Assembly: GCA_027923505.1 (NCBI GenBank)
Contig: BROI01000013.1
Location: 434,001-498,000, forward strand
Direction of reading: 5' to 3'
Length of the DNA: 64,000 nucleotides
DNA from: Mayamaea pseudoterrestris
Lineage: Eukaryota
A program made the translations under genes and the position numbers. Shown one piece after another: positions 1-19,920 of this stretch; position 1 is the first letter of the stretch, and each line of letters opens with the position of its first letter. The notes below the pieces were generated by a model that did no database searches, was not told the origin of the DNA, and saw nothing but the letters and a program-made list of their open reading frames with translations.

Positions 1-466
1 TTTCAATGAAGGCATCGACAAGCTTGGATGTCTTAGCGACAAAGATGGAATCGTCCACAAAGCAACACATCACCAAGTTCTTTCCATAGAACAAACAAGG
101 ATCAAAGTAGCTTTGTTTCAGACCGAGCTTGATAAGGGCTGCCTTCAAATGCTCAAACCATAGCCGAGGGGCTACAGTCAATCCGTAAAGACTCTTTAGG
201 AGGCGCAAACACATGCCGGAGCCTTTACTCGTGTGAAAACCTCGAGGGAGATGGATCCACACTGGGTCATGGAGCTCGGCTTGGACAAATGCACTGGCAA
301 AATCCGTGGAGCAAGCATACCAGTTAAGGTTAAGGGCTAGAATCAACATCAATCGGATGGTCGACCATGCCACAACTGGTGCGTATGTTTCAAAGTCGCC
401 TTCTTGCAGATCACCTCGAACGCAGTAGCGAGCTTTGTACTTCTTAATTGTCCCATCTGGGGAGCG
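1..466 (-). pseudogene. Reverse transcriptase domain (copia type) continuing in a shifted frame, not in the ORF track
   Basis: Manual translation from 466 leftwards: RSPDGTIKKYKARYCVRGDLQ...TYAPVVAWSTIRL...DFASAFVQA...LLKSLYGLTVAPRLW...DPCLF...CCFVDD (FVDD at 50-61); open to the window edge. Confidence 0.93.
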
Positions 467-3400
467 CCAAAAGTACCTGGAAGAATTTTGGTCTTGGCTT
501 CCGACTTGGGGACTTCAGTCCATGTGCCTTTGGACTCCAACGATTGAATCTCCTTCTCGGCGGCAGCTTGCCAATGCTTTACATGAGCATGATCAGCCAT
601 GGCTTGATCCCAAGTTAAAGTATCTGGATCCGATGCAGCAGCCTTGTAGAGGGCTGGAGCAGCAATATTAAAAGCAGCAAAGTAGGAGACGAAACTGGCG
701 TCACAAACTGACTCGATTTGGGCTCCGGAGGCATCGTAAGAGAGGCGGGACGGCTTCTTAGAGGCACGACTGGAACGACGAGTACTTGGCGTAGCTGTTG
801 GAGCTGTAGGATTCTCCCTCGGAGACTCATTGTTGGAGACCGAAGATGGCGATGGATCAGCCGGCAGCTCCCTCGGAGGCGAAGATTCTGCTTGCACTTC
901 AATTGGAAGCTCCCTCGGAGACTCGGGCTCCCTCGCTTGGGCAGGCTCTTGGCTTGGTGCCGACGAAGGCGGCGCTGGCAACTCAGGAGGAGGAGGGACT
1001 TGCAAATCTCGAGGAGGAGCATGGCGCTCAAAAGCATCCCGAACGGCATCCGCTCGAGTGGAGACGGCAGGCTCAGCCTCGAATTCAGCAGAAGCAATGG
1101 CTTCATCTTCATCATCCAATGGGATATACTGAAGAGACGTGTTTCCAAAGAGATTATACCACTCAGTGGAGGCAAAATCCGGCATTTGCGACTCAGTTAC
1201 AGCCACAGTGGCAAACCAATCATCAAAGACGACGTGAAACTGCGGCGTAATGGCGCCCGAGTGCGGATTTAAAACCAAAGGAACGGAGCTAGCATGGGCT
1301 TCACTCATTCCAACAAAGATGCAGCGATGGGACCGCGGCTGCCAGCGGGGCAACTTGTGGCCGTCCGATATCGTTTTATCAAGAACATACACTGGAGACC
1401 CCCAAACGTGTAAGTCATGGAACTTGGAATGGGGCCATCGAGTGCGAGTAAAGATATCTTGGGGAGAAAGGCCGCTCTGTAGATTAGGGACCTTGTTCCA
1501 AAGATACACGGCATGCTTGGTGACCATGGGCCAAAGTGAAACATCGGCGACATCGGGCCAATGGATCTTAGCATGCATCAACATGGCGCGCGAAATAGAC
1601 ATAATGGTCTGTATGCAGCGCTCGGCAATCCCATTATGATGGTGAGCGCCGACTCCAGCAAGCGCACTGACTTGATGGAAAGTTGTAAGATGCTTGGAGA
1701 AGCCTTGTGACGTAAAGGCACCACCATTGTCGGAGAGATACTTGAGGGGAATGACTCCAACATCACGGCAGAACAACTCGAAAGCTTCTTTAGATCTTAA
1801 TGTATCATCCGTATTTAAATGCTGTTGCAGCTCAAGATGAACGTAGCCGGATGCATGATCAACAAACACACAACCGCCAGTGTTCATGGCAGTTTCCTTT
1901 GTCTTGCCACGCGAGGAGAAAAGGCGTCCTTTTGTAGAGCAAACAAAGTGATCAACGGAGATGCGCTGGCCTGGGAGAAGGTTGTCTCGGCGCAAAGCAT
2001 CAACTCGGTCTTTAACAACTTTGGTTGTTTGACCAGGAGAGGAACGCACTCGCTGCTTGGCATACATGCAGGCGGTGCACTTGGGGCATGGCTGCAAAGT
2101 TGCGCAAGCTCTATGGAGACGGCGTGCCGACTCAGAATTAGCAAGCGTTCCACCACGCATTAGAAACTGAATGGTTTTAAAGTTCAAATGGCCAAGACGG
2201 AAATGCCAACGGAGCAATTCCTTTTCAGCCTCAGACAAGTTGGTATTCGAGCTGGCGACGGTGGAGCTTTGGCTTGGCGGTGGTCTTGGCTCACGGCGAG
2301 GGCGTCTGGTGGGCGCACTTGCTCCTCCATCACTTGGAGGACCATCGGCTGGCGGTGGACCGCGCGGCGGCTGCTGAGCAGGAGCTGGACCAGGACCAGG
2401 ACCAGGCGGAGGCAAAGGCGCCTCGCCAGCACTGTAAGAACTTGGCATGCCACTGAGATCGTATGCGATAGCAGTCGGCAAGTTGGTAAGAGGATCAATT
2501 GGAGCCTCAACACCATCATTCGTTATAGAGCCATCCTTGTGGACTCGCTCCACAGAACCGCTCAAGTAGATAGCTCGGCGATCGGCATATATAACTTCAT
2601 TTGGATACTGTTGCAGCAATCCTGGCATACTCAACAGACGCACTTTGGCCTCAGGAATCCAGTATGCTGGAACCTTTACCGTGCGAAGCATGCCTCCATT
2701 GTCAAGAAAGCTCCAGGCGACAAACCCTTTGCCTTTAACTCGACCATCTTTGAAGAGACCATTCAAACGAACACTTGGCGCTGGCTGAATGGGGCCAACA
2801 AAGTCGTCGCGGCTTGGCGAAATGGAGATGCTTGCTCCTGAATCCCAGATTACTGGCAGCATCTTGTCCTTCTCCTTGCACGGTGGTGCTGGCGGGGACT
2901 TGCGATATTTATTGTTAAAGAGAGATTGGCTCAATGTTGGTATATTCGGCTGGGCAGATTCCAAGTGGGACGCTTGGTAGGCTTCTCCAAAATCGTCGAA
3001 ATCTGAAAAATCCCCAAACACAACAGACGCAAACACCTCTTGTGGCATTGGATCAATTGATTGAATTGAAGCTTGCGGCACTGGTGGAGGCAAAGGCGTT
3101 GGCGCCTTGTCAGTTTTAAAGCGGAACGGTTGACGCCGACTGGCTTGCCGCTCCCGATCTGCATGAGCTCTACTGAAGTAGGTGACTCCATCAGGCGTTG
3201 TAATCAATGGATCATTACGCCAGTGATCATTACGCCAGTCTCGATTGCGAATCCGATGGCGCTCTTCATATTGATAAAGAAGCGTATCATTTAGCCATGC
3301 GTTCCAATCTTCCTCTTGGGCGCGAAGGCGGTCACTGATTATATTCTCGTAAGCCTCATTAACTTGATTGGCAGCTTGAGCTTGTCGAAAGGTTGAACGG

Positions 3401-6400
3401 AGAGCCTCAGCGCGAGCATTAATTACCAAGGGCGGAGCAACGGCAACTGCGTGGGCAGTCCGAGGGCGCCATGGTTGGTCGCGAGCTGGGCGACGGCGCG
3501 GCACTTGGCTTTGGTCTGGGCCTTGGCGAGGACGCTGGCGATGGCGCTGCGCTTGGTTTGGACTTGGGCGTGGGCGCTGTCCATGGTTTCGACCATTGCG
3601 ATGATGCTGCTGAGCACGGTTTCTTGGTTGGACTCGAGCTGGGCCTCGTCTTCGAGCATGCAAATGCCATGGTTCTCCCTCGTTGGAAGGCAACCTGCAT
3701 AAAATGGCGCGCAAGAAGGCAAGGAACTTGGCTTGGAGACGCAAAAACCAAGGGATTACCCGCTTCCGAAACCGACGGAGACGGTGAAACCGATGGAATA
3801 AGAAACGGAACCGTTGGAACCTTGAAACAGAGCGACGATTGCGGCGATCTTGATGGATATAGGCGCGACGATGGCGTCGATCCGAATGCCGAGGAGGCTT
3901 TGCAGGTGGCTTCCAAAATATCAAGGCAATGGCGACACTAGTGAGCGTCAACCAAAGGATCCCAGGCACCATCAAACGCCAATGATGGTAAATCAAACGG
4001 CCGATGACATGGACAAGAGAAAGGCTCTCGCAACCAACTGTCATGATGGAATGGCCAAGTTGATCAGCCAAATGGAGACTCTCGCCAAGGGCGGCTGTTG
4101 TATTGGCAAACTGCTGGGCCACAGCAGCATGCAAAGCCTGAGTCTCAGTTGCGTTATTGGAACGAACAAGAGATGAAACAGTTCGAGTCACAGTGAAGAA
4201 TGCCTCACTTAAAGTCGAATGGCTCACAGGCAGGGTTGAAGCTGGGCGCTTAACCAATCGAGCTGCTGAGCACGAATTCACCAAGCAAATCAATCCAATC
4301 ATAAGCACAAATGAAAGTGCACTTGGAGAGAGACTGCGAGAGCGACGGTAAAGCACCTTGTTTGGCTTGGTAGGGCGCTTGGCAGATGGCTCGGAGCTGG
4401 GGCTCGAAGGAGGCGTCCAGGCTGGGGCAGCAGGATTCAACTTAGCAATCTTTGCAGGGGGAGCGTTAACACCACTTGCAAGCTCCCTCGCTTGAATAGC
4501 TGCATTCCGAGCAAACTGCACATCAGACTCATAGCGATCATCACTAGGAGAGCGCTCAATATTGCAGAGCTTGGCGACAATGGCCGCTGGCGTATGCTCA
4601 TCAATGATCATTGGATCATCGGCAACAATGGAAGCAATGGCATCCTCGCCGTCCACCATGGCAGACGCAATCTCGTCAATGACAGCTTCTTCACCTTCTT
4701 CAAGAGAACAATCGTCATTGGCTAAAGCAAGGGCTTTGGCGTCAGCGGCGGCTTGGGCGCAAGCTGATGGATCCTCGATAGCTAGATAGGCAGCTGGCGT
4801 ATCAAACCAAGCAAGATGACCACCATTGGGAGCAGCAGCCGGAGCAGATTTACTTCCAGTGTGCTCGTCAGTGCCATGGTTAAGTTGCCACTTGTTGCAA
4901 TGCGCGCACCAATGGTAGGTCTTTCCTCCCTTTTCAATGGTAGATGGCTGCGATGCTGAAGGAGCAATTCGCCGCCATGGCGCATGGTAGTGATGGACAT
5001 TGTCAATGGCCTTTGACGAAGCACCATTTCCACTCTTTGGAGCAGTCTTGGCCTTCCCTTTTCCATTTCCTTTGGGAGCGCCGCGCTTGTTGCTAGTTTT
5101 CACGGTCGTTGCCTGTGGGCAATCGCGCTGAAAATGGCCGGTCTTATGGCAAATGTGACAAGTCTTCTCCTCCTTTGCTCCCCTTCCGTTTGCCTTGGCT
5201 TTGTCAAGTTGAACAACGCCTCCAAAGGCGGGCGGAATGGCAGTCTTGTCGCGCGGATTCTTGGCGGGAACCCAGTCATTGGCCGCATGAATCTGGCGGT
5301 AAGCAGTATTAGCTACCTGCGCCAAATCCTTTAATGTTAGATGCTCACGCGTCATGTAAGCATCCTGATCCGTTGGAGTCATATTCGAGCAAGCTTTCAA
5401 GCCAATGACATGCTTAGCTTTCCAAGCTTTCATTTCGTCAATGAACTCCTCGCCGCCAGTGTTTTCAAGGCAGCGCTTGCCTCCTGCTTGGAGAAGGTTT
5501 TTCAACACTTTGGTGGTCAGGGAATGCGGATACTGACCCGCATTAATTAATGGCTTTGCTTTGATAATAAGCGCATCCATGTAGGTGGTAATGTTTTGGC
5601 CTGGCTCCGCTTGCGGCTTGTAGGCGGCGACTTCTTGTTCCACTTTCAAGTACCAGTCGCGGGATTGGTGAAGAATCATCTCCATTACTTGGAAATAGAC
5701 GACACAGAAGCTATCCTGGGCGCTAGCGCTGGTATAATGATCCAGGCGCGTGCGAAGCTCCTCGTTGCACGAATTCTTGAAGAATCTAATGAGATCCTTG
5801 TCGTTGCCGCGATCATATTCGTCGTAGCTGGCGACGAAAGGAGCAATGGCTTCCTTGACCGACTCAATGCTCTCAAACAGCGAATAATATTGAAGGAAAT
5901 TAACCAACTTGGTCTTGGTTGGATCGCGCGGGTCGATGACGTAACAATATGTGTCGTTGCCACAGAGCTCCGCCTGTTCCTTAAAGAGCATTTGTTGATG
6001 CTGCAAGTTGCATGTCAACGTAAACTTCGTTGGAAGTCCTTTCTGCCGCTCTTGTTGCTTTGAATCGTTCAAGGGACGAAGCATCAACGAGTTGCTTGGC
6101 TTGGCTCCGTCGGCGACTGGCTTTTCCAATCCCGACCAATCCACATTTGGTGGACCGCCGCCCATGCATGCCGCTCGCTCCTTGGTGGAGATTTGGACGA
6201 CAGTGCCCATGATGGGTTTGTTTGGCGTGTACACTTGGACAGGTGCGCGATGCTGACGTAGCATCTCTTTGGCGATTTCGGAATCCATGTGTTTGGCGAT
6301 GGCTTCGATTCGTCGGTCACGCGCGGCTTCTTCCATCGCCTGACGAACGGCGTCATCGATGGCAGCCTGCTGCTCTTGCTTGGCTTTGAGCTGAGCAGCA

Positions 6401-6606
6401 ATCTTCATCCGCTGCTGTTGTTCGTTATACAGCTGGCGAATTTCATCCTCGGCGTCTCGCTCAGCTTGGGTGAGCTTGGCGCGTCGTTCACGTTCCACCC
6501 GATTGATCATTTCGGTTCGCTGGACTTCGGCAGCTTGTAGGAGCGTGCGCTGGTCATCCGTCAACTGGACGGGAGGCCGTGGTGGTGTTGGCGTTCCTGG
6601 CGCCAT
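349..6606 (-). CDS. Gag-PR-IN(-start of RT) polyprotein with a large internal membrane-type insert; last ~40 codons are out of frame after a lesion at ~470
   Basis: Zn knuckle CHICHKTGHFQRDC (5119-5160); second C/H motif WCAHCNKWQLNHGTDEH; protease VIWDSGAS (~2830-2853); pre-integrase LLRWHFRLGHLNF; integrase ISVDHF...SDNGGAF...NGIAERCIQ; RT start W..A..KEIQSLESKGTW. Confidence 0.95.
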   Translation of the reverse strand: MAPGTPTPPRPPVQLTDDQRTLLQAAEVQRTEMINRVERERRAKLTQAERDAEDEIRQLYNEQQQRMKIAAQLKAKQEQQAAIDDAVRQAMEEAARDRRIEAIAKHMDSEIAKEMLRQHRAPVQVYTPNKPIMGTVVQISTKERAACMGGGPPNVDWSGLEKPVADGAKPSNSLMLRPLNDSKQQERQKGLPTKFTLTCNLQHQQMLFKEQAELCGNDTYCYVIDPRDPTKTKLVNFLQYYSLFESIESVKEAIAPFVASYDEYDRGNDKDLIRFFKNSCNEELRTRLDHYTSASAQDSFCVVYFQVMEMILHQSRDWYLKVEQEVAAYKPQAEPGQNITTYMDALIIKAKPLINAGQYPHSLTTKVLKNLLQAGGKRCLENTGGEEFIDEMKAWKAKHVIGLKACSNMTPTDQDAYMTREHLTLKDLAQVANTAYRQIHAANDWVPAKNPRDKTAIPPAFGGVVQLDKAKANGRGAKEEKTCHICHKTGHFQRDCPQATTVKTSNKRGAPKGNGKGKAKTAPKSGNGASSKAIDNVHHYHAPWRRIAPSASQPSTIEKGGKTYHWCAHCNKWQLNHGTDEHTGSKSAPAAAPNGGHLAWFDTPAAYLAIEDPSACAQAAADAKALALANDDCSLEEGEEAVIDEIASAMVDGEDAIASIVADDPMIIDEHTPAAIVAKLCNIERSPSDDRYESDVQFARNAAIQARELASGVNAPPAKIAKLNPAAPAWTPPSSPSSEPSAKRPTKPNKVLYRRSRSLSPSALSFVLMIGLICLVNSCSAARLVKRPASTLPVSHSTLSEAFFTVTRTVSSLVRSNNATETQALHAAVAQQFANTTAALGESLHLADQLGHSIMTVGCESLSLVHVIGRLIYHHWRLMVPGILWLTLTSVAIALIFWKPPAKPPRHSDRRHRRAYIHQDRRNRRSVSRFQRFRFLFHRFHRLRRFRKRVIPWFLRLQAKFLAFLRAILCRLPSNEGEPWHLHARRRGPARVQPRNRAQQHHRNGRNHGQRPRPSPNQAQRHRQRPRQGPDQSQVPRRRPARDQPWRPRTAHAVAVAPPLVINARAEALRSTFRQAQAANQVNEAYENIISDRLRAQEEDWNAWLNDTLLYQYEERHRIRNRDWRNDHWRNDPLITTPDGVTYFSRAHADRERQASRRQPFRFKTDKAPTPLPPPVPQASIQSIDPMPQEVFASVVFGDFSDFDDFGEAYQASHLESAQPNIPTLSQSLFNNKYRKSPPAPPCKEKDKMLPVIWDSGASISISPSRDDFVGPIQPAPSVRLNGLFKDGRVKGKGFVAWSFLDNGGMLRTVKVPAYWIPEAKVRLLSMPGLLQQYPNEVIYADRRAIYLSGSVERVHKDGSITNDGVEAPIDPLTNLPTAIAYDLSGMPSSYSAGEAPLPPPGPGPGPAPAQQPPRGPPPADGPPSDGGASAPTRRPRREPRPPPSQSSTVASSNTNLSEAEKELLRWHFRLGHLNFKTIQFLMRGGTLANSESARRLHRACATLQPCPKCTACMYAKQRVRSSPGQTTKVVKDRVDALRRDNLLPGQRISVDHFVCSTKGRLFSSRGKTKETAMNTGGCVFVDHASGYVHLELQQHLNTDDTLRSKEAFELFCRDVGVIPLKYLSDNGGAFTSQGFSKHLTTFHQVSALAGVGAHHHNGIAERCIQTIMSISRAMLMHAKIHWPDVADVSLWPMVTKHAVYLWNKVPNLQSGLSPQDIFTRTRWPHSKFHDLHVWGSPVYVLDKTISDGHKLPRWQPRSHRCIFVGMSEAHASSVPLVLNPHSGAITPQFHVVFDDWFATVAVTESQMPDFASTEWYNLFGNTSLQYIPLDDEDEAIASAEFEAEPAVSTRADAVRDAFERHAPPRDLQVPPPPELPAPPSSAPSQEPAQAREPESPRELPIEVQAESSPPRELPADPSPSSVSNNESPRENPTAPTATPSTRRSSRASKKPSRLSYDASGAQIESVCDASFVSYFAAFNIAAPALYKAAASDPDTLTWDQAMADHAHVKHWQAAAEKEIQSLESKGTWTEVPKSEAKTKILPGTFGAPQMGQLRSTKLATAFEVICKKATLKHTHQLWHGRPSD

Positions 6607-6698
6607 GGTAACTCGAGTGTGATTAAAGCTTTGGCTTCTGTCTTAGTTGCTTGCTTGGGCGTGCACTCCCTTGGCAAGGCGACGAACAGAAGAACCGT

Positions 6699-6711
6699 GG
6701 GGCTCGTAACC
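6699..6711 (-). promoter_or_regulatory. Primer-binding site of the half-tRNA(iMet) type
   Basis: Minus strand GGTTACGAGCCCC closely resembles the GGTTATG(G/A)GCCC PBS of Drosophila copia and yeast Ty5, complementary to the tRNAiMet anticodon arm. Confidence 0.75.
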
Positions 6712-6713
6712 AG

Positions 6714-7020
6714 TGAAGATTTCCAGCGACAGCAATGGCTGCACTAGCAAATGCTTCTCACTCAATAGGATTGAATGGAGACTGTTATTAAGAGCAACAA
6801 CAAGAGCAAAGGACTCGAGTAATTGCAACTGCTACAACAACGAAGGCGTTGGTGATTAACTGAGAGGATTTAATTAACTGCTATTGATTTACCTCGCTCG
6901 CCCATCGTGGGCATCACGATTGCTCGTCCACGATGCCGTTGGGGCGTCAACTTACACATATAGTAAGAGAGGTGCTTGCACCTCGGTAGGAAGGTAGGAT
7001 ACACCTTCAACTTCGACTCA
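6714..7020 (-). repeat. Putative 5' LTR (~307 bp)
   Basis: Minus strand begins TGAGTC at the satellite junction and ends ATCTTCA 2 nt before the PBS (TGA...TCA termini); partner LTR is not in the window. Confidence 0.75.
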
Positions 7021-9418
7021 CCATGCCCTGACACTCCGCACATTCAACCAATGGTTGAATGTGCCAGCCCTGCTCCCATTTTGGCTGCAGGGATCATCAG
7101 CATTGCCTGCTGAGCCCTTCCATTTCTTTCCAATTGTGTTTGTTGTCAACGATGGGCCATAAGTTCATCAGTTGCACCTCAGCATCCATCACCGTGTACG
7201 CCATGGTGAGACTGAGCAGATCCAACAACTTGTTGGATCTGCTAGCGGTGCACCTCAAGTGGCAGGTGAGACTTCCAAAATGGTCTGCAGACCCCTTAAT
7301 ACAACCAATATGTACTTGAACAATGAATGGGACTCATTGACTTGTCCATCTGGGTGTGGAAGCCATCACCATGCCCTGAGACTCCGCACATTCAACCAAT
7401 GGTTGAATGTGCCAGCCCTGCACCCATTTTGGCTGCAGGTATCATCAGCATTGCCTGCTGAGCCCTCCAATTTCTTTCCAATCATGTTTGTTGTCAATGA
7501 TGGGCCATAAGTTGGTCAGTTCCACCTCAGCATCCATCACCAAGTACGCCATGGTGAGACTGAGCAGATTCAACAACTTGTTGGATCTGCTAGTGGTGCA
7601 CCTCAAGTGGCAGGAAAGACTTCCAAAATGGCCTGCATACCCCATAATACAACCAATATGTACTTGAACAATGAATGGGACTCATAGACTTGTCCATTTG
7701 GGTGTGGAAGCCATCACCATGCACTGAGACTCCGCACCTTCAACCAATGGTTGAAAATGCCAGCCCTGTGCCCATTTTGGCTGCAGGGATCATCAGCATT
7801 GCCCGCTGAGCCCTCCAATCTCTTTGAAATCATGTTTGTTGTCAGTGATGGGCCATAAATTGGTCAGTTGCACCTCAGCATCCATCACCATGTATGCCAC
7901 GGTGAGACTGAGCAGATTCAACAACTTGTTGGATCTGCTAGCGGTGCACCTCAAGTGGCAGGTGAGACTTCCAAAATGGCCTGCAGACCCCATAATACAA
8001 CCAATATGGACTTGAACAATGATTAGTACGCATAGACTTGTCCATTTGGGTGTGGAAGCCATCACCATGCCCTGACACTCTGCACATTCAACCAATGGTT
8101 GAATTTGCCATCCCTGCGCCCATTTTGGCTGCAGGGATCATCAGCATTGCCCGCTGAGCCCTCCAATCTCTTTCCAATCATGTTTGGTGTCAATGATGGG
8201 CTATAAGTTGGTCAGTTGCACCTCAGCATCCATCACTGTGTACGCCACAGTGAGACTGAGCGGATCCAACAACTTGTTGGATCTGCTAGCGGTGCACCTC
8301 AAGTGGCAAGTGAGACTTTTAAATGGCCTGCAGACCCCATAATACAACCAATATCGACTTGAACAATGAATGGGATTCAAAGATTTGTCCATTTGGGTGT
8401 GGAAGCCATCACAATGCCCTGAGACTCTGCACATTCAACCAATGGTTGAATGTGCCAGCCCTGCACCCATTTCGCTGCAGGGATCATCAGCATTGCCTGC
8501 TGAGCCCTCCAATCTCTTTCAAATCATTTTGTTATCAATGATGGCCCATAAGTTGGTCAGTTGCGCCTCAGCATCCATCACCGTGTACGCCACAATGAGA
8601 CTGAGCAGATCCAACAACTTGTTGGATCTGCTAGGGGTGCACCTCAAGTGGCAAGTGAGACTTCCAAAATGGCCTGCAGACCCCATAATAGAACCAATAT
8701 GGACTTGAACAATGATTAGTACGCATAGACTTGTCCATTTGGGTGTGGAAGCCATCACAATGCCCTGAGACTCTGCACATTCAACCAATGGTTGAATGTG
8801 CCAGCCCTGCGCCCATTTGGCTGCAGGGATCATCAGCATTGCCTGCTGAGCCCTCCAATCTCTTTCAAATCATGTTTGTTGTCATTGATGGGCCATAATT
8901 CGGTCAGTTGCTCCTCAGCATCCATCACCATGTACGCCACGGTGAGACTGAGCAGATCCAACAACTTGTTGGATCTGCTAGTGGTGCACCTCAAGTGGCA
9001 AGTGAGACTTCCAGAATGGCCTGCAGACCCCATATTACAACCAATATGGACTTGAACAATGATTAGTACGCATAGACTTGTCCATTTGGGTGTGGAAGCC
9101 ATTGCGATGCCCTGAGACTCCGCACATTCAACCACTGGTTGAATGTGCCAGTCCTGCACCCATTTTGGCTGCAGGGATCATCAGCATTGCCCGCTGAGCC
9201 CTCCCATTTCTTTCCAATTGTGTTTGTTGTCAATGATGGGCCATAAGTTGGTCAGTTGCACCTCAGCATCCATTACCGTGTACGCCATGGTGAGACTGAG
9301 CAGATCCAACAACTTGTTGGATCTGCTAGCGGTGCACCTCAAGTGGCAAGTGAGACTTCCAATATGGCCTTCAGACCCCTTAATACAACCAATATGGACT
9401 TGAACAATGAATGGGACT
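7021..9418. repeat. Tandem satellite A: 348-bp unit, ~6.9 copies; each unit is a dimer of diverged ~174-bp subunits
   Basis: Unit starts at 7021, 7369, 7717, 8065, 8412, 8758, 9105 (period 346-348). Confidence 0.97.
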
Positions 9419-9948: not shown

Positions 9949-12900
9949 AAAAATTCAGTCAGTCCCTGTGGCAGAACTTGGAGAATAGATGCGCTAGTGA
10001 TGAATGCATTGCACTTTCTACATGATGAAACAATGTGTGTCAACTGCCAGCTATCAACATGTCCCGTCCCCTCTGGCTGTTGTTGGGTTATGAGGCTTTC
10101 CCTGTGGCAGTACTTGGCAACTATCTTGACAGAAATTGAATGCATTGCACTTTCTACATCATGATACAATGCCTTTCAACTGCCAGATAGCAATTTATAC
10201 CTCTCTGGCTGTTGGAGTGGTTCATGGCAGCCAGCTACTGTGGACAAGCCTGGGGACACAAAATTCTGGCAGTCCCTGTCGCAGAACTTGGAGACTACGT
10301 GGGCTAGTGATAAATGCATTGCACTTTTGACATCATGAAACAATGCCTGTCAACTGCCAGATATCAATTTACACCTCACTGGCCATTGGAGAGGGTCATG
10401 GCAGCCAGCTACTGTGGGCAAGCCTGGGGACACGAAATTCAGGCGGTCCTACAGGCAGAACTTGGAGACTACATGAGCTAGTGATGAATGCATTGCACTT
10501 TTGACATCATGAAACAATGCTTGTCAACTGCCAGCTATCAATTTACACCCCTCTGGCTGTTGAAGTAGGTTATGGCAGCCAGCTACCGTGGACAAGCCTG
10601 GGGCCACGAAATTCTGGTGGTCCCACAGGCAGAACTTGGAGACTACATGAGCTAGTGATGAATGCATTGCATTTTTGACATCATGAAACATTGTTTGTCA
10701 ACTGCCACCTATCAATTTACACCTCTCTGGCTGTTGGAGTGGGTCATGGCAGCCAGCTACTGTGGGCAAGCCTGGGGACACAAAATTCTGGCAGTCCCTG
10801 TCACAGCACGTAGAGACTACATGGGCTATATTGACTGCATTGCATTTTTGACATCATGATACAATGCCTGTCAACTGCCAGCTATCAATTTACACCTCAC
10901 TGGGCATTGGAGAGGGTCATGGCAGCCAGCTACTGTGGACAAGCCTGGGGACACGAAATTCTGGTGGTCCTACAGGCAGTACTTGGAGACTACATGGGCT
11001 AGTGATGAAAGCATTGCATTTTTGACATCATGAAACAATGCCTGTCAACTGCCACCTATCAATTTTCACCCCTCTGGCTGTTGGAGTGGGTTATGGCAGC
11101 CAGCTACTGTGGACAAGCCTGGGGACACGAAATTCTGGCAGTCACTGTCGCAGCACTTGGAGACTACATGGGCTAGTGATGAAAGCATTGCACTTTTGAC
11201 ATCATGAAACAATGCCTGTCAACTGCCAGTTAGCAATTTACACCTCTCTGGCTGCTGAAGTGGGTTATGGCAGCCAGCTACTGCGGACAAGCCTGGGGAC
11301 ACAAAATCTGGCAGTCCCTGCGGCAAAACATTGAGACTACATGGGCTAGTGATGAATGCATTGCGTTTTTGAAATCATGAATAAATGCTTGTCAACTGCC
11401 AGCTATCAATTTACACCTCTCTGGCTGTTGGAGTGGGTCATGGCAGCCAGCTACTGTGGGCAAGCCTGGGGACACAAAATTCTGGCAGTCCCTGTCGCAG
11501 AATGTGGAGACAACAAGGGCTATATTGGATGCATTGCACTATTGACATCATGAAACAATGCTTGTCAACTGCCAGCTATCAATTTACACCTCTCTGGCTG
11601 TTGAAATAGGTTATGGCAGCCAGCTACTGTGGACAAGCCTGGGGACACGAAATTCTGGCAGTCCCTGTCGCAGAACTTGGAGACTACATGGGCTAGTGAT
11701 GAATGCATTGCACTTTTGACATCATGAAACATCGCCTGTCAACTGCCAGCTATCAATTTACACCACTCTGGCTGTTGAAGTAGGTTATGGCAGCCAGCTA
11801 CTGTGGACAAGCCTGGGGACATGATATTCTGGCAGTCCCTGTCGCAGAACTTGGAGACTACATGGGCTATATTGGATGCATTGCACTATTGACATCATGA
11901 AACAATGCCTGTCAACTGCCAGCTATCAATTTACACCTCTCTGGCTGCTGGAGTGGGTTATGGCAGCCAGCTACTGCGGACAAGCCTGGGGACACAAAAT
12001 TATGGCAGTCCCTGTTGCAGAACTTGGAGACTGCATGGGCTAGTGATCAATGCATTGCACTTGAAACATCGCCTGTCAACTGCCAGCTATCAATTTACAC
12101 CACTCTGGCTGTTGAAGTAGGTTATGGCAGCCAGCTACTGTGGACAAGCCTGGGGACATGATATTCTGGCAGTCCCTGTCGCAGAACTTGGAGACTACAT
12201 GGGCTATATTGGATGCATTGCACTATTGACATCATGAAACAATGCCTGTCAACTGCCAGCTATCAATTTACACCTCTCTGGCTGCTGGAGTGGGTTATGG
12301 CAGCCAGCTACTGCGGACAAGCCTGGGGACACAAAATTATGGCAGTCCCTGTTGCAGAACTTGGAGACTGCATGGGCTAGTGATCAATGCATTGCACTAT
12401 TGACATCATGAAACAATGCCTGTCAACTGCCAGCTATCAATTTACACCTCACTGGCCATTGGAGAGGGTTATGGCAGCCAGCTACTGTGGACAAGCCTGG
12501 GGACATGAAATTCTAGCAGTCCCTGTCACAGAACTTGGAAACTACATGGGCTAGTGATGAAAGCATTGCACTTTTGACATCATGAAACAATGCCTGTCAA
12601 CTGCCAGCTATCAATTTACACCTCACTGGCCATTGGAGAGGGTCATGGCAGCCAGCTACTGTGGACAAGCCTGGGGACACGAAATTCTGGCAGTCCCTGT
12701 CGCAGAACTTGGAGACTACATGGGCTAGTGATGAAAGCATTACACTTTTGACATCATGAAACAATGCCTGTCAACTGCCAGCTATCAGTTTACACCTCAC
12801 TGGCCATTGGAGAGGGTCATGGCAGCCAGCTACTGTGGACAAGCCTGGGGACACGAAATTCTGGCAGTCCCTGCGGCAAAACATTGAGACTACATGGGCT

Positions 12901-15900
12901 AGTGATGAATGCATTGCGTTTTTGACATCATGAAACAATGCTTGTCAACTGCCAGCTATCAATTTACACCTCTCTGGCTGTTGGAGTGGGTCATGGCAGC
13001 CAGCTACTGTGGGCAAGCCTGGGGACACTGAAAGCATTGCACTTTTGACATCATGAAACAATGCCTGTCAACTGCCAGCTATCAATTTACACCTCACTGG
13101 CCATTGGAGAGGGTCATGGCAGCCAGCTACTGTGGACAAGCCTGGGGACACGAAATTCTGGCAGTCCCTGTCGCAGAACTTGGAGACTACATGGGCTAGT
13201 GATGAAAGCATTACACTTTTGACATCATGAAACAATGCCTGTCAACTGCCAGCTATCAGTTTACACCTCACTGGCCATTGGAGAGGGTCATGGCAGCCAG
13301 CTACTGTGGACAAGCCTGGGGACACGAAATTCTGGCAGTCCCTGCGGCAAAACATTGAGACTACATGGGCTAGTGATGAATGCATTGCGTTTTTGACATC
13401 ATGAAACAATGCTTGTCAACTGCCAGCTATCAATTTACACCTCTCTGGCTGTTGGAGTGGGTCATGGCAGCCAGCTACTGTGGGCAAGCCTGGGGACACG
13501 ATATCGCAGAACGTGGAGACTACATGGGATATATTGACTGCATTGCATTTTTGCCATCATGAAACAATGCTTGACAACTGCCAGTTATCAATTTACACCT
13601 CTCTGGCTGTTGAAATAGGTTATGGCAGCCAGCTACTGTGGACAAGCCTGGGGACACGAAATTCTGGCAGTCCCTGCGGCAAAACATTGAGACTACATGG
13701 GCTAGTGATGAATGTATTGCGTTTTTGACATCATGAAAGAAAGCTTGTCGACTGCCAGCTATCAATTTACACCTCTCTGGCTGTTGGAGTGGGTCATGGC
13801 AGCCAGCTACTGTGGGCAAGCCTGGGGACACAAAATTCTGGCAGTCCTTGTCACAGAACGTGGAGACTACATGGGCTATATTGACTGCATTGCATTTTTG
13901 ACATCATGAAACAATGCTTGTCAACTGCCAGCTATCAATTTACACCACTCTGGCTGTTAAAATAGGTTATGGCAGCCAGCTACTGTGGACAAGCCTGGGG
14001 ACACAAAATTCTGGCCATCCCTGTCACAGAACTTGGAGACTACATGGGCTTTATTGACTGCATTGCTCTTTTGACATCATTAAACAATGCCTGGCAACTG
14101 CCAGCTATCAGTTTACACCTCACTGGCCATTGGAGAGGGTCATGGCAGCCAGCTACTGTGGACAAGCCTGGGGACATGAATTTCTGGCAGTCCCTGTCGC
14201 AGAACTTGGAGACTACATGGGCTAGTGATGAATGCATTGCACTTTTGACATCATTGAAACATTGCCTGTCAACTACCAGCTATCAATTTACACCTCTCTG
14301 GCTGTTGAAGTAGGTTATGGCAGCCAGCTACTGTGGACAAGCCTGGGGACATGAAATTCTGGCAGTCCCTGTTGCAGAACTTGGAGACTACATGGGCTAG
14401 TGATCAATGCATTGCACTTTTGACATCATGAAACATTGCCTGTCAACTGCCAGCTATCAATTTACACCTCTCTGGCTGCTTGAGTGGGTTATGGCAGCCA
14501 GCTACTGTGGACAAGCCTGGGGACACAAAATCTGGCAGTCCCTGTCACAGAACTTGGAGACTACATGGGCTAGTGATCAATGCATTGCACTATTGACATC
14601 ATGAAACAATGCCTGCCAACTGCCAGCTATCAATTTACACCTCACTGGCCATTGGAGAGGGTTATGGCAGCCAGCTACTGTGGACAAGCCTGGGGACATG
14701 AAATTCTAGCAGTCCCTGTCACAGAACTTGGAAACTACATGGGCTACTGATGAAAGCATTGCACTTTTGACATCATGAAATTATGCCTGTCAACTGCCAG
14801 CTATCAATTTACACCTCTCTGACTGTTGCATTGGTTTATGGCAGCCAGCTACTGAGGACAAGCCTGGGGACACGAAATTCTGGCAGTCCCTGTCGCAGAA
14901 CTTGGAGACTACATGGGCTAGTGATCAATGCATTGCATTTTTGACATCATGAAACAATGCCTGTCAACTGCCAGCTATCAATTTACACCTCTCTGGCTGT
15001 TGGAGTGGGTTATGGCAGCCAGCTACTGTGGACAAGCCTGGGGACACGAAATTCTGGCAGTCCCTGTGGCAGAACTTGGAGACTACATGAGCTAGTGATG
15101 AATGCATAGCACTCTTGACATCATGAAACAATGCCTGTCAACTGCCAGCAATCAATTTACACCTCTCTGGCTGTTGAGGGGTTAGTGGCAGCCAGCTACT
15201 GTGGACAAGCCTGGTCTGGCAGTCCCTGTCACAGAACTTGGAGACTACATGGGCTAGTGATGAATGCATTGCACTTTTGATATCAAGAAACAATGCCTGT
15301 GAACTGCCAGCTATCAATTTACACACTCTCTGGCTGTTGGAGTGGGATAGCCAGCTACTGTGACAAGCCTGGGGACACGGAATTCTCCAGTCCCTGTCGC
15401 AGAACTGAGACTACATGGGCTAGTGATATGCATTGCCTTTTGACATCATGAAACAATGCCTGTCAACTGCCAGCTATTCGTTATCCCCTCACTGGCCATT
15501 GGAGAGGGTCATGGCAGTCAGCTACTGTGGGCAAGCCTGGGGACATGAAATTCTGGCAGTCCCTGTCGCCGAACTTGGAGACTACATGGGCTAGTGATGA
15601 AAGCATTGCACTTTTGACATCATGACACAATGCCTGTCAACTGCCAGCTATCAATTTACACCTCTCTGGCTGCTGGAGTGGGTTATGGCAGCCAGCTACT
15701 GCGGACAAGCCTGGGGACATGGAATTCTGGCAGTCCCTGTCGCAGAACTTGGAGACCACATGGGCTATATTGACTGCATTGCTTTTTTGAAATCATGAAA
15801 ACAATGCCTGTCAACTGCCAGCTATCAATTTACACTTCCTGGCTGTTGGAGTGGGTTATTTCAGCCAGTGTCTGTGGACAAGCCAGGAGCCACGAAATTC

Positions 15901-18900
15901 AGGCGGTCCTACAGGCAGAACTTGGAGACTACATGGGCTAGTGATGAAAGCATTACACTTTTGCCATCATGAAACAATGCCTGTCAACTGCCAGCTATCA
16001 GTTTACACCTCACTGGCCATTGGAGAGGGTCATGGCAGCCAGCTACTGTGGACAAGCCTGGGGACATGAAATTCTGGCAGTCCCTGTCGCCGAACTTGGA
16101 GACTACATGGGCTAGTGATGAAAGCATTGCACTTTTGACATCATGACACAATGCCTGTCAACTGCCAGCTATCAATTTACACCTCTCTGGCTGCTGGAGT
16201 GGGTTATGGCAGCCAGCTACTGTGGACAAGCCTAAAGACATGAAATTCTGGCAGTCCCTGTTGCTGAACTTGGAGACTACATGGGCTAGTGATGAATGCA
16301 TTAATTTTTTGACATCATGAAACAATGCTTGTCAACTGCCAGCTATCAATTTACACCTCTCTGGCTGTTGGAGTGGGTCATGGCAGCCAGCTACTGTGGG
16401 CAAGCCTGGGGACACGAAATTCTGGCAGTCCCTGTCGCAGAACTTGGAGACTACATGGGCTAGTGATGAATGCATTGCGTTTTTGACATCATGAAACAAT
16501 GCTTGTCAACTGCCAGCTATCAATTTACACCTTGCTGGCCGTTGTAGAGGGTCAAGGCAGCCAGCTACTGTGGACAAGCCTGGGGACACGAAATTCTGGC
16601 AGTCCCTGTCTCAGATCTTGGAGCTTACATGGGCTAATGATGAATGAGTTGCACTTTTGACATCATGAAACAATGCCTGTCAACTGCCAGCTATCAATTT
16701 ACACCTCTCTGGCTGTCGGAGTGGGTTATGGCAGCCAGCTACTGTGGACAAGCCTGGGGACACGAAATTCTGGCAGTCCCTGTCGCAGAACTTGGAGACT
16801 ACATGGGCTAGTGTTGAATGCATTGCACTTTTGACATCATGAAACAATGCCTGTCAACTGCCAGCTATCAATTTACACCTCTCTGGCTGTTGGAGTGGGT
16901 TATGGCAGCCAGCTACTGTGGACAAGCCTGGGGACACGAAATTCTGGCAGTCCCTGTCGCAGAACTTGGAGACTACATGGGCTAGTGATGAATGCATTGC
17001 ACTTTTGACATCATGAAACAATGCCTGTCAACTGCCAGCTATCAATTTACACCTCTCTGGCTGTTGAAGTAGGTTATGGCAGCCAGCTACCGTGGACAAG
17101 CCTGGGGACACAAAATTATGGCAGTCCCTGTTGCAGAACTTGGAGACTACATGGGCTAGTGATGAATGCATTGCACTTTTGACATCATGAAACAATGCCT
17201 GTCAACTGCCAGCTATCAATTTACACCTCTCTGGCTGTTGGAGTGGGTTATGGCAGCCAGCTACTGTGGACAAGCCTGGGGACACAAAATTCTGGCAGTC
17301 CCTGTCGCAGAACTTGGAGACTACATGGGCTAGTGATCAATGCATTGCACTTTTGACATCATGAAACAATGCCTGCCAACTGCCAGCTATCAATTTACAC
17401 CTCACTGGCCATTGGAGAGGGTTATGGCAGCCAGCTACTGTGGACAAGCCTGGGGACACAAAATTCTGGCAGTCCCTGTCGCAGAACTTGGAGACTACAT
17501 GGGCTAGTGATGAAAGCAGTGCACTTTTGACACCATGAAAAAATGCTTGTTAACTGCCAGCTATCAATTTACACCTCTCTGGCTGTTGAAATAGGTTATG
17601 GCAGCCAGCTACTGTGGACAAGCCTGGGGACACAAAATTCTGGCAGTCCCTGTCGCAGAACTTGGAGACTACATGGGCTATATTGACTGCATTGCTTTTT
17701 TGACATCATGAAACAATGCCTGTCAACTGCCAGATATCAATTTACACCTCACTGGCTGTTGGAGTGGGTCATGGCAGCCAGCTACTGTGGGCAAGCCTGG
17801 GGACAATTTCACTCAGTTGATTTGCATGTCTCGTGCAGTATTACACCTCGGCTGTTGAGTGGCAGCCACTGTGGCGAAATTCTGGCAGTCCCTGTGGCAG
17901 AACTTGGAGACTACATGGGCTAGAGATGAATGCTTCGCACTTTCTGCATCACGAAACAATGCCTGTCAACTGCAAGCTATCAAGTTATACCTCACTGGCC
18001 GTTGAAGTGGGTCATGGCAGCCAGCTACTGTGGACAAGCCTGGGGACACGAAATTCTGGCAGTCCCTGTCGCAGAACTTGGAGACTACATGGGCTAGTGA
18101 TGAATGCATTGCACTTTTGACATCATGAAACATTGCCTGTCAACTGCCAGCTATCAGTTTACACCTCACTGGCCATTGGAGAGGGTCATGGCAGCCAGCT
18201 ACTGTGGACAAGCCTGGGGACATGAATTTCTGGCAGTCCCTGTCGCAGAACTTGGAGACTACATGGGCTAGTGATGAATGCATTGCACTTTTGACATCAT
18301 TGAAACATTGCCTGTCAACTACCAGCTATCAATTTACACCTCTCTGGCTGTTGAAATAGGTTATGGCAGCCAGCTACTGTGGACAAGCCTGGGGACAAGA
18401 ATTTCTGGCAGTCCCTGTCGCAGAACTTGGAGACTACATGGGCTAGTGATGGATGCATTGCACTTTTGACATCATGAAACAATGCCTGTCAACTGCCAGC
18501 TATCAGTTTACACCTCACTGGCCATTGGAGAGGGTCATGGCAGCCAGCTACTGTGGACAAGCCTGGGGACACAAAGTTCTGGCAGTCTCCGAACACATGG
18601 GCTAGTGATCAATGGATTTTGACATCATGAAACATTGCTTGTCAACTGCCACTTATCAATTTACACCTCTCTGGCTGTTGGAGTGGGTCATGGCAGCCAG
18701 CTACTGTGGGCAAACCTGGGGACACGAAATTCTGGCAGTCCCTGTTGCAGAACGTGGAGACTACATGGGCTATATTGACTGCATCGCATTTTTGACATCA
18801 TGAAACAATGCCTGTCAACTGCCAGCTATCAGTTTACACCTCACTGGCTGTTGGAGTGGGTCATGGCAGCCAGCTACTGTGGGCAAGCCTGGGGACACGA

Positions 18901-19920
18901 AATTCTGGCAGTCCCTGTCGCAGAACGTGAAGACTACATGGGCTAGTGATGAAAACATTGCACTTTTGACATCATGAAACTATGCCTGTCAACTGCCAGC
19001 TATCAATTTACACCTCTCTGGCTGTTGCATTGGTTTTTGGCAGCCAGCTACTGTGGACACGCCTGGGGACACGAAATTCTGGCAGTCCCTGTCGCAGAAC
19101 TTGGAGACTACATGGGCTAGTGATCAATGCATTGCACTTTTGACATCATGAAACATTGCCTGTCAACTGCCAGCTATCAATTTACACCACTCTGGCTGTT
19201 GCATTGGGTTATGGCAGCCAGCTACTGTGGACAAGCCTGGGGACACGAAATTCTGGCAGTCCCTGTTGCCGAACTTGGAGACTACATGGGCTAGTGATCA
19301 ATGCATTGCATTTTTGACATCATGAAACATTGCTTGTCAACTGCCACTTATCAATTTACACCTCTCTGGCTGTTGGAGTGGGTCATGGCAGCCAGCTACT
19401 GTGGACAAGCCTGGGGACACGAAATTCTGGCAGTCCCTGTTGCCGAACTTGGAGACTACATGGGCTAGTGATCAATGCATTGCATTTTTGACATCATGAA
19501 ACATTGCTTGTCAACTGCCACTTATCAATTTACACCTCTCTGGCTGTTGGAGTGGGTCATGGCAGCCAGCTACTGTGGGCAAACCTGGGGACACGAAATT
19601 CTGGCAGTCCCTGTCGCAGAACGTGGAGACATCATGGGTTATATTGACTGCATTGCATTTTTGACATCATGAAACAATGCCTTTCAACTGCCATCTATCA
19701 ATGTATCCCTCTCTGGCCTCAGGAGTAAGTTATGGCAGGCAGCTGCTGTGGACAAGCCTAGGACCATAAATTCAGGCAGCCCTATGGCAGGAGACTTGGC
19801 AACTCAATGGACCAGAGACAATTACATTGCACTTTCTACATCATGTCATAATGCCTTTCATCTGCCAGGTATTAATTTGGCTCAGCAGGCAATGCTGGAC
19901 TATCCCTGATACAAGCTGTG
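9949..19920. repeat. Tandem satellite B: 174-bp monomer, roughly 57 copies, degenerate at both edges
   Basis: GACATCATGA recurs at 10329, 10503, 10677, 10850, 11024 and onward; shared core ...CTGTCAACTGCCAGCTATCAATTTACACC...GGCAGCCAGCTACTGTGGACAAGCCTGGGGACA... Confidence 0.98.

Follow-up and report, generated by a model that had tools for sequence, protein, structure and literature searches.

We analyzed a 64,000-nucleotide (nt) stretch of the genome of the diatom Mayamaea pseudoterrestris (contig BROI01000013.1, positions 434,001 to 498,000; hereafter, the window). The window begins within a Ty1/copia-type (CoDi-like) long terminal repeat (LTR) retrotransposon, which occupies positions 1..7017 on the minus strand. 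In the Gag-Pol polyprotein of this element, the spacer between the zinc knuckles of Gag and the protease includes two hydrophobic segments and an Arg-rich tail. We propose, with moderate confidence, that this spacer is a working part of the gag-pol of diatom CoDi-like elements: the two segments would be membrane helices that, together with the polybasic tail, tie Gag-Pol to a membrane. This membrane is probably an endomembrane, namely the endoplasmic reticulum (ER).

The polyprotein (P0001) is 2085 amino acids (aa) long and covers Gag, the spacer, the protease (PR), and the integrase (IN). It is encoded by a single open reading frame (ORF) without a stop codon (349..6606, from the ORF list; all coordinates are in the window, and all features of the element are on the minus strand). 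Between the CCHC zinc knuckle of the nucleocapsid (NC; aa 483–496, 5119..5160) and the active-site motif of the protease (DSGAS, aa 1255–1259, 2830..2844), there are 771 residues. An earlier note on this DNA had described the uninterrupted ORF, the two hydrophobic segments, the N-glycosylation sites (sequons) between them, and the basic regions on either side. Checks of the ORF, the motifs, and the hydropathy found all of these features where the note had placed them.

To define the lineage, we used a search with PR, IN, and the reverse transcriptase (RT), which gave 317 relatives; we analyzed the best 120 of the 317 together with P0001 (121 proteins). Many of the best 120 are 2000–2400 aa long, and the few that are named belong to two diatoms, Mayamaea pseudoterrestris and Fragilaria crotonensis. 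We kept the 79 polyproteins (P0001 and 78 others) that had both a knuckle, as matched by a regular expression, and a downstream protease motif. The 42 proteins that were left out are mostly N-terminally short models. We defined a hydrophobic segment as a 19-residue window with a Kyte-Doolittle (KD) score of at least 1.6, and, as the control, we used the regions of these 79 polyproteins that belong to Gag and to Pol.

The spacer contains at least one hydrophobic segment in 74 of the 79 polyproteins and at least two in 50 of them (none in 5, one in 24, two in 38, and three or more in 12). Four of the five relatives with no segment have two sub-threshold peaks (at least 1.2) in the spacer. The spacer has 4.03 segments per 1000 aa, as compared to 0.10 for Gag and 0.62 for Pol. 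From the knuckle to the first segment, the median distance is 133 aa (interquartile range 124–150), and from the last segment to the protease, it is 236 aa. Thus, the module is not confined to one odd element, as the earlier note had it: the hairpin is a trait of the whole lineage, and its conservation in such a large group of diatom copia elements is the more interesting result. Since most of the relatives hold the helices, we suggest that these elements assemble on a cell membrane.

The spacers of the relatives are also shorter than that of P0001. The median length across the 79 polyproteins is 409 aa, so P0001 exceeds its own kin by about 360 aa, instead of having the roughly 650 extra residues that the earlier note had counted. 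In the 37 relatives with exactly two segments, the loop between the segments has a median length of about 24 aa, and just 3 of the 37 loops contain a sequon. As sequons are this rare in the relatives, the module cannot in general be there for the sake of glycosylation.

Several comparisons argue that the resemblance of these spacers extends beyond their composition. An alignment of 70 spacers contains, in order, a second Cys/His motif, DPSAW, helix 1, helix 2 with AP.LW, an R..RR cluster, GLHR.YP.RLR, and more motifs up to the protease. Within helix 2, one tryptophan is the same in every row of a 45-row alignment (A2). When we compared the window's group to the spacers of 70 relatives with hhalign, aa 861–942 were aligned (probability 96.5%, E = 7.2e-10); this range comprises the helix before segment 2, segment 2 itself, and the basic tail. 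Of 125 proteins searched with a three-sequence profile, 16 relatives matched at E ≤ 1e-3, for the most part within this same range. Among the named relatives, a Fragilaria protein has a second helix that closely resembles that of P0001, and the Mayamaea model begins inside the second helix and continues to the protease. We infer that the module is homologous across the lineage, and not just similar in composition. The claim of the earlier note that a membrane-type module lies between Gag and the protease is thus strengthened: given the lineage-wide segments and the profile homology, such a module is probably real and under selection.

In P0001 itself, segment 1 (aa 763–782, 4261..4320, KD peak 2.12) and segment 2 (aa 876–898, 3913..3981, KD peak 2.17) are the sole 19-residue windows with KD scores of at least 1.6 in all 2085 aa. 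Two windows with scores of at least 2.1 arose in 3 of 2000 composition-preserving shuffles of P0001. Segment 2 contains the P..LW motif, which hhalign shows to be common to the whole lineage. Ahead of segment 1 is a basic stretch (aa 750–758, 4333..4359) that resembles the n-region of a signal sequence, with 7 Lys or Arg residues in the 15 aa before the segment. Segment 2 is followed by a WKPP motif and an Arg-rich juxtamembrane tail (aa 898–949, 3760..3912), with 14 Lys or Arg residues in the 40 aa after the segment. The basic tail is seen in the relatives as well: across the 74 polyproteins with a segment, the 40 aa that follow the last segment contain 8.4 Lys or Arg residues on average, whereas the average is 2.7 ahead of the first segment and 4.8 protein-wide. 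After the tail is a candidate amphipathic helix (aa 950–972, 3691..3759), which is helical in a low-confidence structural model. Its hydrophobic moment is 1.23, versus a shuffled mean of 0.63, but this is a modest signal, as 3.3% of shuffles attain it. The two sequons (NAT, aa 818, 4147..4155; and NTT, aa 835, 4096..4104) lie in a 93-aa loop (3982..4260), and this is not significant alone (Poisson P ~ 0.055).

Structure prediction gave a model for the core of a relative. For P0015 (aa 454–653), using 45 aligned rows, AlphaFold2 predicted two 27-residue helices with a short, helix-bearing loop between them, followed by a basic helix and a long helix (mean predicted local distance difference test score, or pLDDT, 79.2). 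We used this model for all of the fold searches, as the model of the window's module was too poor for a fold search. At E ≤ 0.001, there was no fold match to the P0015 core in BFVD, and at E ≤ 10, there was none in PDB. In a VIA-wide search with the same model, the top Z was 4.1, for matches to single helices.

We also considered that the helices might never be inserted in a membrane and might instead be a buried or oligomerizing part of a soluble spacer within Gag-Pol. The hydropathy criterion does flag a segment of the RT as well, and 5 of the 79 polyproteins have no spacer segment at the threshold of 1.6. But the predicted helices are 27 residues long and the KD peaks exceed 2, there is a strong charge asymmetry past the last helix, and helix 1 resembles a signal peptide in the window's sub-lineage (see below). 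We think that a soluble spacer is fairly unlikely.

A phmmer search with aa 600–1254 against 1.84 billion representatives gave 4 matches in total. Two of these, P0122 (97% identity) and P0123 (77% identity), are sister copies of Gag and of the acidic, Ala-rich linker that precedes the module (aa 600–745, 4372..4809); this linker is missing from the spacer consensus of the 70 relatives. The other two matches, P0124 and P0125, are distant homologs (33–35% identity) with the same order of parts. P0125 comprises helix 1 with a basic flank before it, the loop, helix 2, and the beginning of the basic tail. In P0124, the parts are the loop, helix 2, and the Arg-rich tail, with the protease following in the same frame; by tblastn, its alignment to the window spans 4239 to 2752 without a change of frame. 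In the alignment of the window, P0124, and P0125, three motifs do not vary: FxNxT at the second sequon, P..LW in helix 2, and, after this helix, WKPP. Each of the three sequences also has a first sequon, at positions no more than two columns apart. No Pfam family was found over aa 600–1254, and nothing meaningful was found on P0124 or P0125 either. A word-index search with aa 600–1254 had no match among proteins of 1146–3649 aa, and a word-index search with P0015 aa 454–653 returned the query and one relative, which is uninformative about taxonomic spread. A scan of metagenome contigs with the module alignment gave 242 pattern matches, of which tblastn confirmed none, and a search of the ESM Atlas gave no usable match.

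We also found near-identical copies of the element. In runs X1–X6, which carry five organism codes and come from two studies, 25–79% of sampled words from the spacer are present, and the contigs of four runs (four organism codes, two studies) are mostly 95–99% like the window. One contig of 6013 nt (479–6497) is about 99.2% identical to the window, and its sole indels are in frame: 15 nt at 3210, which is a deletion in one sister contig, and 9 nt near 6307–6311. A contig of another run spans 3752–4935 without a gap. The copies under five organism codes could be from strains or sister species or could reflect horizontal transfer. We also noticed that the match of a contig from run X5 ends near 3758–3792, with unlike sequence beyond; in some copy, the Arg-rich tail is disrupted or rearranged.

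Among the substitutions listed for the close copies (40 of 90), Pol has 19 synonymous and 4 non-synonymous changes (dN/dS ~ 0.06), the spacer has 7 and 7 (dN/dS ~ 0.31), and aa 749–972 have 3 and 5 (dN/dS 0.55). None of the substitutions listed hits a sequon or creates a stop. These small counts indicate that the constraint on the spacer is weaker than that on Pol, but not absent.

This weaker constraint, the low-complexity tail, and the extra length of the spacer relative to its kin might be taken as signs of neutral filler or of a recently captured host gene fragment, which the earlier note had raised as an alternative. But each of the four phmmer matches appears to be part of an element of this same kind, and none of them has a Pfam family from a host gene. 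Furthermore, the order and position of the parts are kept at 33–35% identity, the hairpin is found across the lineage, and, across the spacer, all indels of the sister contigs (~99% identity) are in frame. We therefore consider filler or a captured fragment to be extremely unlikely.

From the sequence features, their conservation, and their position, which we observed directly, we infer how the module might be inserted and oriented in the membrane, whether it is glycosylated or cleaved, and what it might do in assembly. Under our proposal, helix 1 would emerge from the ribosome after about 760 aa of cytosolic Gag and would direct the ribosome and the nascent chain to the ER. Helix 1 would then insert, with its basic flank and Gag kept in the cytosol; the loop would pass into the lumen; and helix 2 would act as a stop-transfer sequence, so that the strongly basic tail and PR-IN-RT remain cytosolic. 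Gag-Pol, along with the RNA under translation, would thereby be tied to the membrane, and this would be the site of particle assembly. The earlier note had proposed the same topology (a lumenal loop, with Gag and PR-IN-RT cytosolic), and both the charges around the segments of P0001 and the conservation of the sequons in P0124 and P0125 are consistent with it.

There is a precedent for ER-linked assembly in Ty1. In the part of the Ty1 study used here, Ty1 RNA is translated with the signal recognition particle (SRP) and is brought to the ER, and this nucleates the sites of particle assembly (PMC3945221). The analogy is that a copia-type element is linked to SRP and the ER at the start of particle assembly. 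The route differs, in that the same part of that study has the Gag of Ty1 being translocated into the lumen and returning to the cytosol (PMC3945221). The hairpin of the diatom proteins would be a further difference, as Ty1 is not known to have one between NC and PR.

In the window's sub-lineage, helix 1 looks like a cleavable signal peptide. Such peptides have a basic n-region, a short apolar h-region, and small residues at positions −3 and −1. By hydropathy and composition, helix 1 of P0001 has a basic flank, a short core, and small residues: its apolar core has 11 residues (12 in P0125), and a run of small residues follows the core in both proteins. Helix 1 of the 37 two-segment relatives contains an uncharged run with a median length of 20 residues. 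With a signal-like helix 1 and a 93-aa loop with two sequons, a cut by signal peptidase is possible: in this sub-lineage, the host's signal peptidase may split Gag from a membrane-anchored and glycosylated spacer-Pol. The earlier note had suggested such a split, and the same build of helix 1 in P0125 lends it support. Given the build of helix 1 in the relatives, their loops of about 24 aa, and their few sequons, the hairpin would be ancestral to the lineage, and the long, sequon-bearing loop and the signal-like helix 1 would be later elaborations in the sub-lineage.

A bolder version of this scenario is that Gag-Pol is an integral ER protein throughout the lineage and that, in the window's sub-lineage, a glycosylated type I protein resembling Env or the FAST (fusion-associated small transmembrane) proteins is released for budding or for passage from cell to cell, such as between gametes. 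In other words, signal peptidase and the element's protease would together free a surface protein comprising the loop, helix 2, the tail, and the amphipathic helix, for envelopment or for cell-to-cell passage. If this were true, it would imply an infectious-style pseudovirus in algae, and the near-identical copies under five organism labels would reflect horizontal spread. Besides these copies, the resemblance of helix 1 to a signal peptide fits this idea, as do the second sequon, which is invariant in the sub-lineage, the first sequon, which is at about the same place, and the modest amphipathic helix. Also, there are 5 Lys or Arg residues in the 15 aa after helix 2. For the FAST-like sORF2 proteins of insect Metaviridae, the criterion in the portion of the preprint used here is at least 3 Lys or Arg residues within 15 aa after the helix, along with an amphipathic motif (bioRxiv 10.1101/2025.03.14.642691).

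The same portion of that preprint shows how the module departs from FAST-like proteins. The sORF2 proteins are encoded by separate ORFs of 63–107 aa; each has a single helix and a myristoylation motif, and the ectodomain is about 30 aa long. More generally, the FAST-like class is defined by a separate ORF of 60–210 aa with one helix and an N-terminal myristoylation motif (bioRxiv 10.1101/2025.03.14.642691). What they share with the diatom module is the membrane helix, the juxtamembrane polybasic stretch, and the amphipathic motif, but here two helices are in frame inside gag-pol and there is no MGxxxS/T at a start. The env-like ORFs of sireviruses and the env of errantiviruses (Metaviridae) are likewise predicted membrane proteins of LTR retroelements, but they are separate ORFs downstream of pol, according to the part of the Pseudoviridae profile used here (PMC8515867), while the diatom module is in frame between NC and PR.

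Furthermore, the ectodomain here would be at most 93 aa, with neither a fusion peptide nor heptad repeats, and in most of the relatives the loops are about 10–60 aa and lack sequons. We found no match to any envelope or fusion protein by sequence or fold (Pfam, phmmer, BFVD, PDB, and VIA, with the P0015 core for the fold comparisons). And the five organism labels may correspond to close strains or species. Overall, we consider the bolder scenario, and the release of an Env-like or FAST-like protein that it depends on, to be very unlikely. Of the earlier interpretation, the membrane module, its topology, and perhaps the cut by signal peptidase are plausible, but we would not call the module env-like, and we found no support for an enveloped particle.

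Another alternative is that the element's protease cuts out the hairpin, which would then act as a viroporin or membrane-permeabilizing peptide, for instance by helping the particle or its DNA to cross a membrane. The p7 and 6K proteins are small two-helix proteins of RNA-virus polyproteins that act on membranes. Similarly, the diatom module is a two-helix hairpin between structural and enzymatic parts, and its conserved flanking motifs could be cleavage sites. But there are no known cleavage sites, there is no homology or fold match (BFVD, PDB, and VIA, with the P0015 core), and the topology that we propose, with both ends in the cytosol, is opposite to that of p7. A viroporin thus seems quite unlikely to us. 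More broadly, p7 of hepaciviruses, 6K of alphaviruses, and 6K2 of potyviruses are short hydrophobic helices between the parts of a polyprotein, and some of them are cut by the host's signal peptidase. The likeness between these and the diatom module is in the mode of working; the module has no homology to them, the host and the type of replication are unrelated, and the topology is unlike that of p7.

Several observations weigh against our proposal of a membrane-tethering module. First, the membrane call is based on a crude hydropathy scale that also flags a recurrent segment in the RT (the 0.62 segments per 1000 aa in Pol). Second, the lineage as a whole shows no enrichment of sequons (present in 3 of 37 relatives). 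Third, the AlphaFold2 model of the window's own module, from a three-row alignment, is poor (pLDDT 54.0 and predicted template modeling score 0.23). Fourth, the GLHR.YP.RLR motif after helix 2, which may be a cleavage or docking site and is clear in P0015, P0018, P0023, and P0124, is degenerate in the window's copy (~3780–3850). Fifth, the counts of substitutions in the spacer (7 and 7, with 3 and 5 in aa 749–972, among those listed) are small. Sixth, P0122 leaves the frame just before helix 1 (at about 4350 in the window) and ends 28 aa later; P0122 is either a damaged sister copy or an artefact of the gene model. Finally, the window's copy carries a frameshift in its RT.

As to the degenerate motif after helix 2, we considered whether a double frameshift had caused it and dropped this explanation, since P0124 aligns to the region in a single frame.

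If our proposal is correct, then a conserved hairpin between NC and PR would turn Gag-Pol itself into a membrane protein. These elements would then have, as part of Gag-Pol, their own way to the kind of ER-linked assembly at which Ty1 arrives via SRP, in a manner that resembles how RNA viruses anchor their polyproteins. Copia-type elements are described as producing cytosolic particles of Gag and Pol. In the part of the International Committee on Taxonomy of Viruses (ICTV) profile of Pseudoviridae used here, Gag and Pol are listed, and the family's sole membrane protein is the env-like ORF of sireviruses, which is separate and downstream of pol (PMC8515867). The part of Maumus 2009 used here describes diatom copia elements as abundant and stress-responsive (PMC2806351), so their site of assembly bears on how diatom genomes change.

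We did not find a description of such a hairpin in the literature on copia or CoDi elements and transmembrane segments, a search that covers main texts and not the supplementary element tables of Maumus 2009. Two papers define the CoDi elements: in the portion of Maumus 2009 used here, the words "transmembrane", "hydrophobic", and "membrane" do not occur (PMC2806351), nor does "transmembrane" occur in the portion used of Llorens 2009 (PMC2774666).

The assignment of the element to Ty1/copia (Pseudoviridae) follows from its RVT_2-type RT, the order PR, IN, RT, and the CCHC knuckle in Gag. It shares these traits, along with a single gag-pol frame, with the CoDi-like Ty1/copia elements of diatoms; our label "CoDi-like" is based on the named diatom relatives, and not on a grouping of the RT with CoDi1–7. 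The CCHC knuckle matches the pattern C-X2-C-X4-H-X4-C, although its score against Pfam zf-CCHC (17.6 bits) is below the cut-off of 20.8. About 80 aa past this knuckle is the second Cys/His motif (WC..C..W...H....H; aa 565–582, 4861..4914), which is conserved across the lineage (hhalign probability 99.7%). Between the amphipathic helix and the protease lie an Arg/Pro/Gln-rich stretch and a pre-protease region (aa 973–1254, 2845..3690); P0124 can be aligned with the C-terminal ~100 aa of this part (E = 2e-15). The integrase (aa 1447–1796, 1219..2268) has a GAG-pre-integrase domain (PF13976, E = 1.1e-08), a core (PF00665, a weak match), and an SH3-like domain (PF25597, E = 3.5e-07).

The start of the RT (2..472; RVT_2, PF07727, E = 3.8e-25) is in another frame than the main ORF. 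A three-frame reading places the frameshift near nt 467–480, and a contig from run X2 has 13 extra bases at 467–470, which is at the site of the frameshift. Thus, this copy is slightly broken, outside of the spacer between Gag and PR. The rest of the RT, the RNase H, and the 3' LTR lie beyond the start of the window, so the 5' LTR side (~6607–7017) is the only one inside it. The depth of contigs is raised over 6637–6873, as expected for an LTR. Searching the window by tblastn with P0124 and P0125 revealed no further copy of the element and no jump in frame.

The element's upstream boundary is set by a satellite that begins at 7018. Immediately next to the element are two tandem arrays (7018–9418 and 10137–19878), whose periods are 348 and 174 bp, and the depth of contigs over 6874–7100 exceeds that over the element by a factor of more than 100. 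It appears that the element was inserted at the border of a highly abundant satellite. Farther along, 19949–62881 contains about 20 ORFs of 200–1568 aa, on both strands, that look like ordinary host genes.

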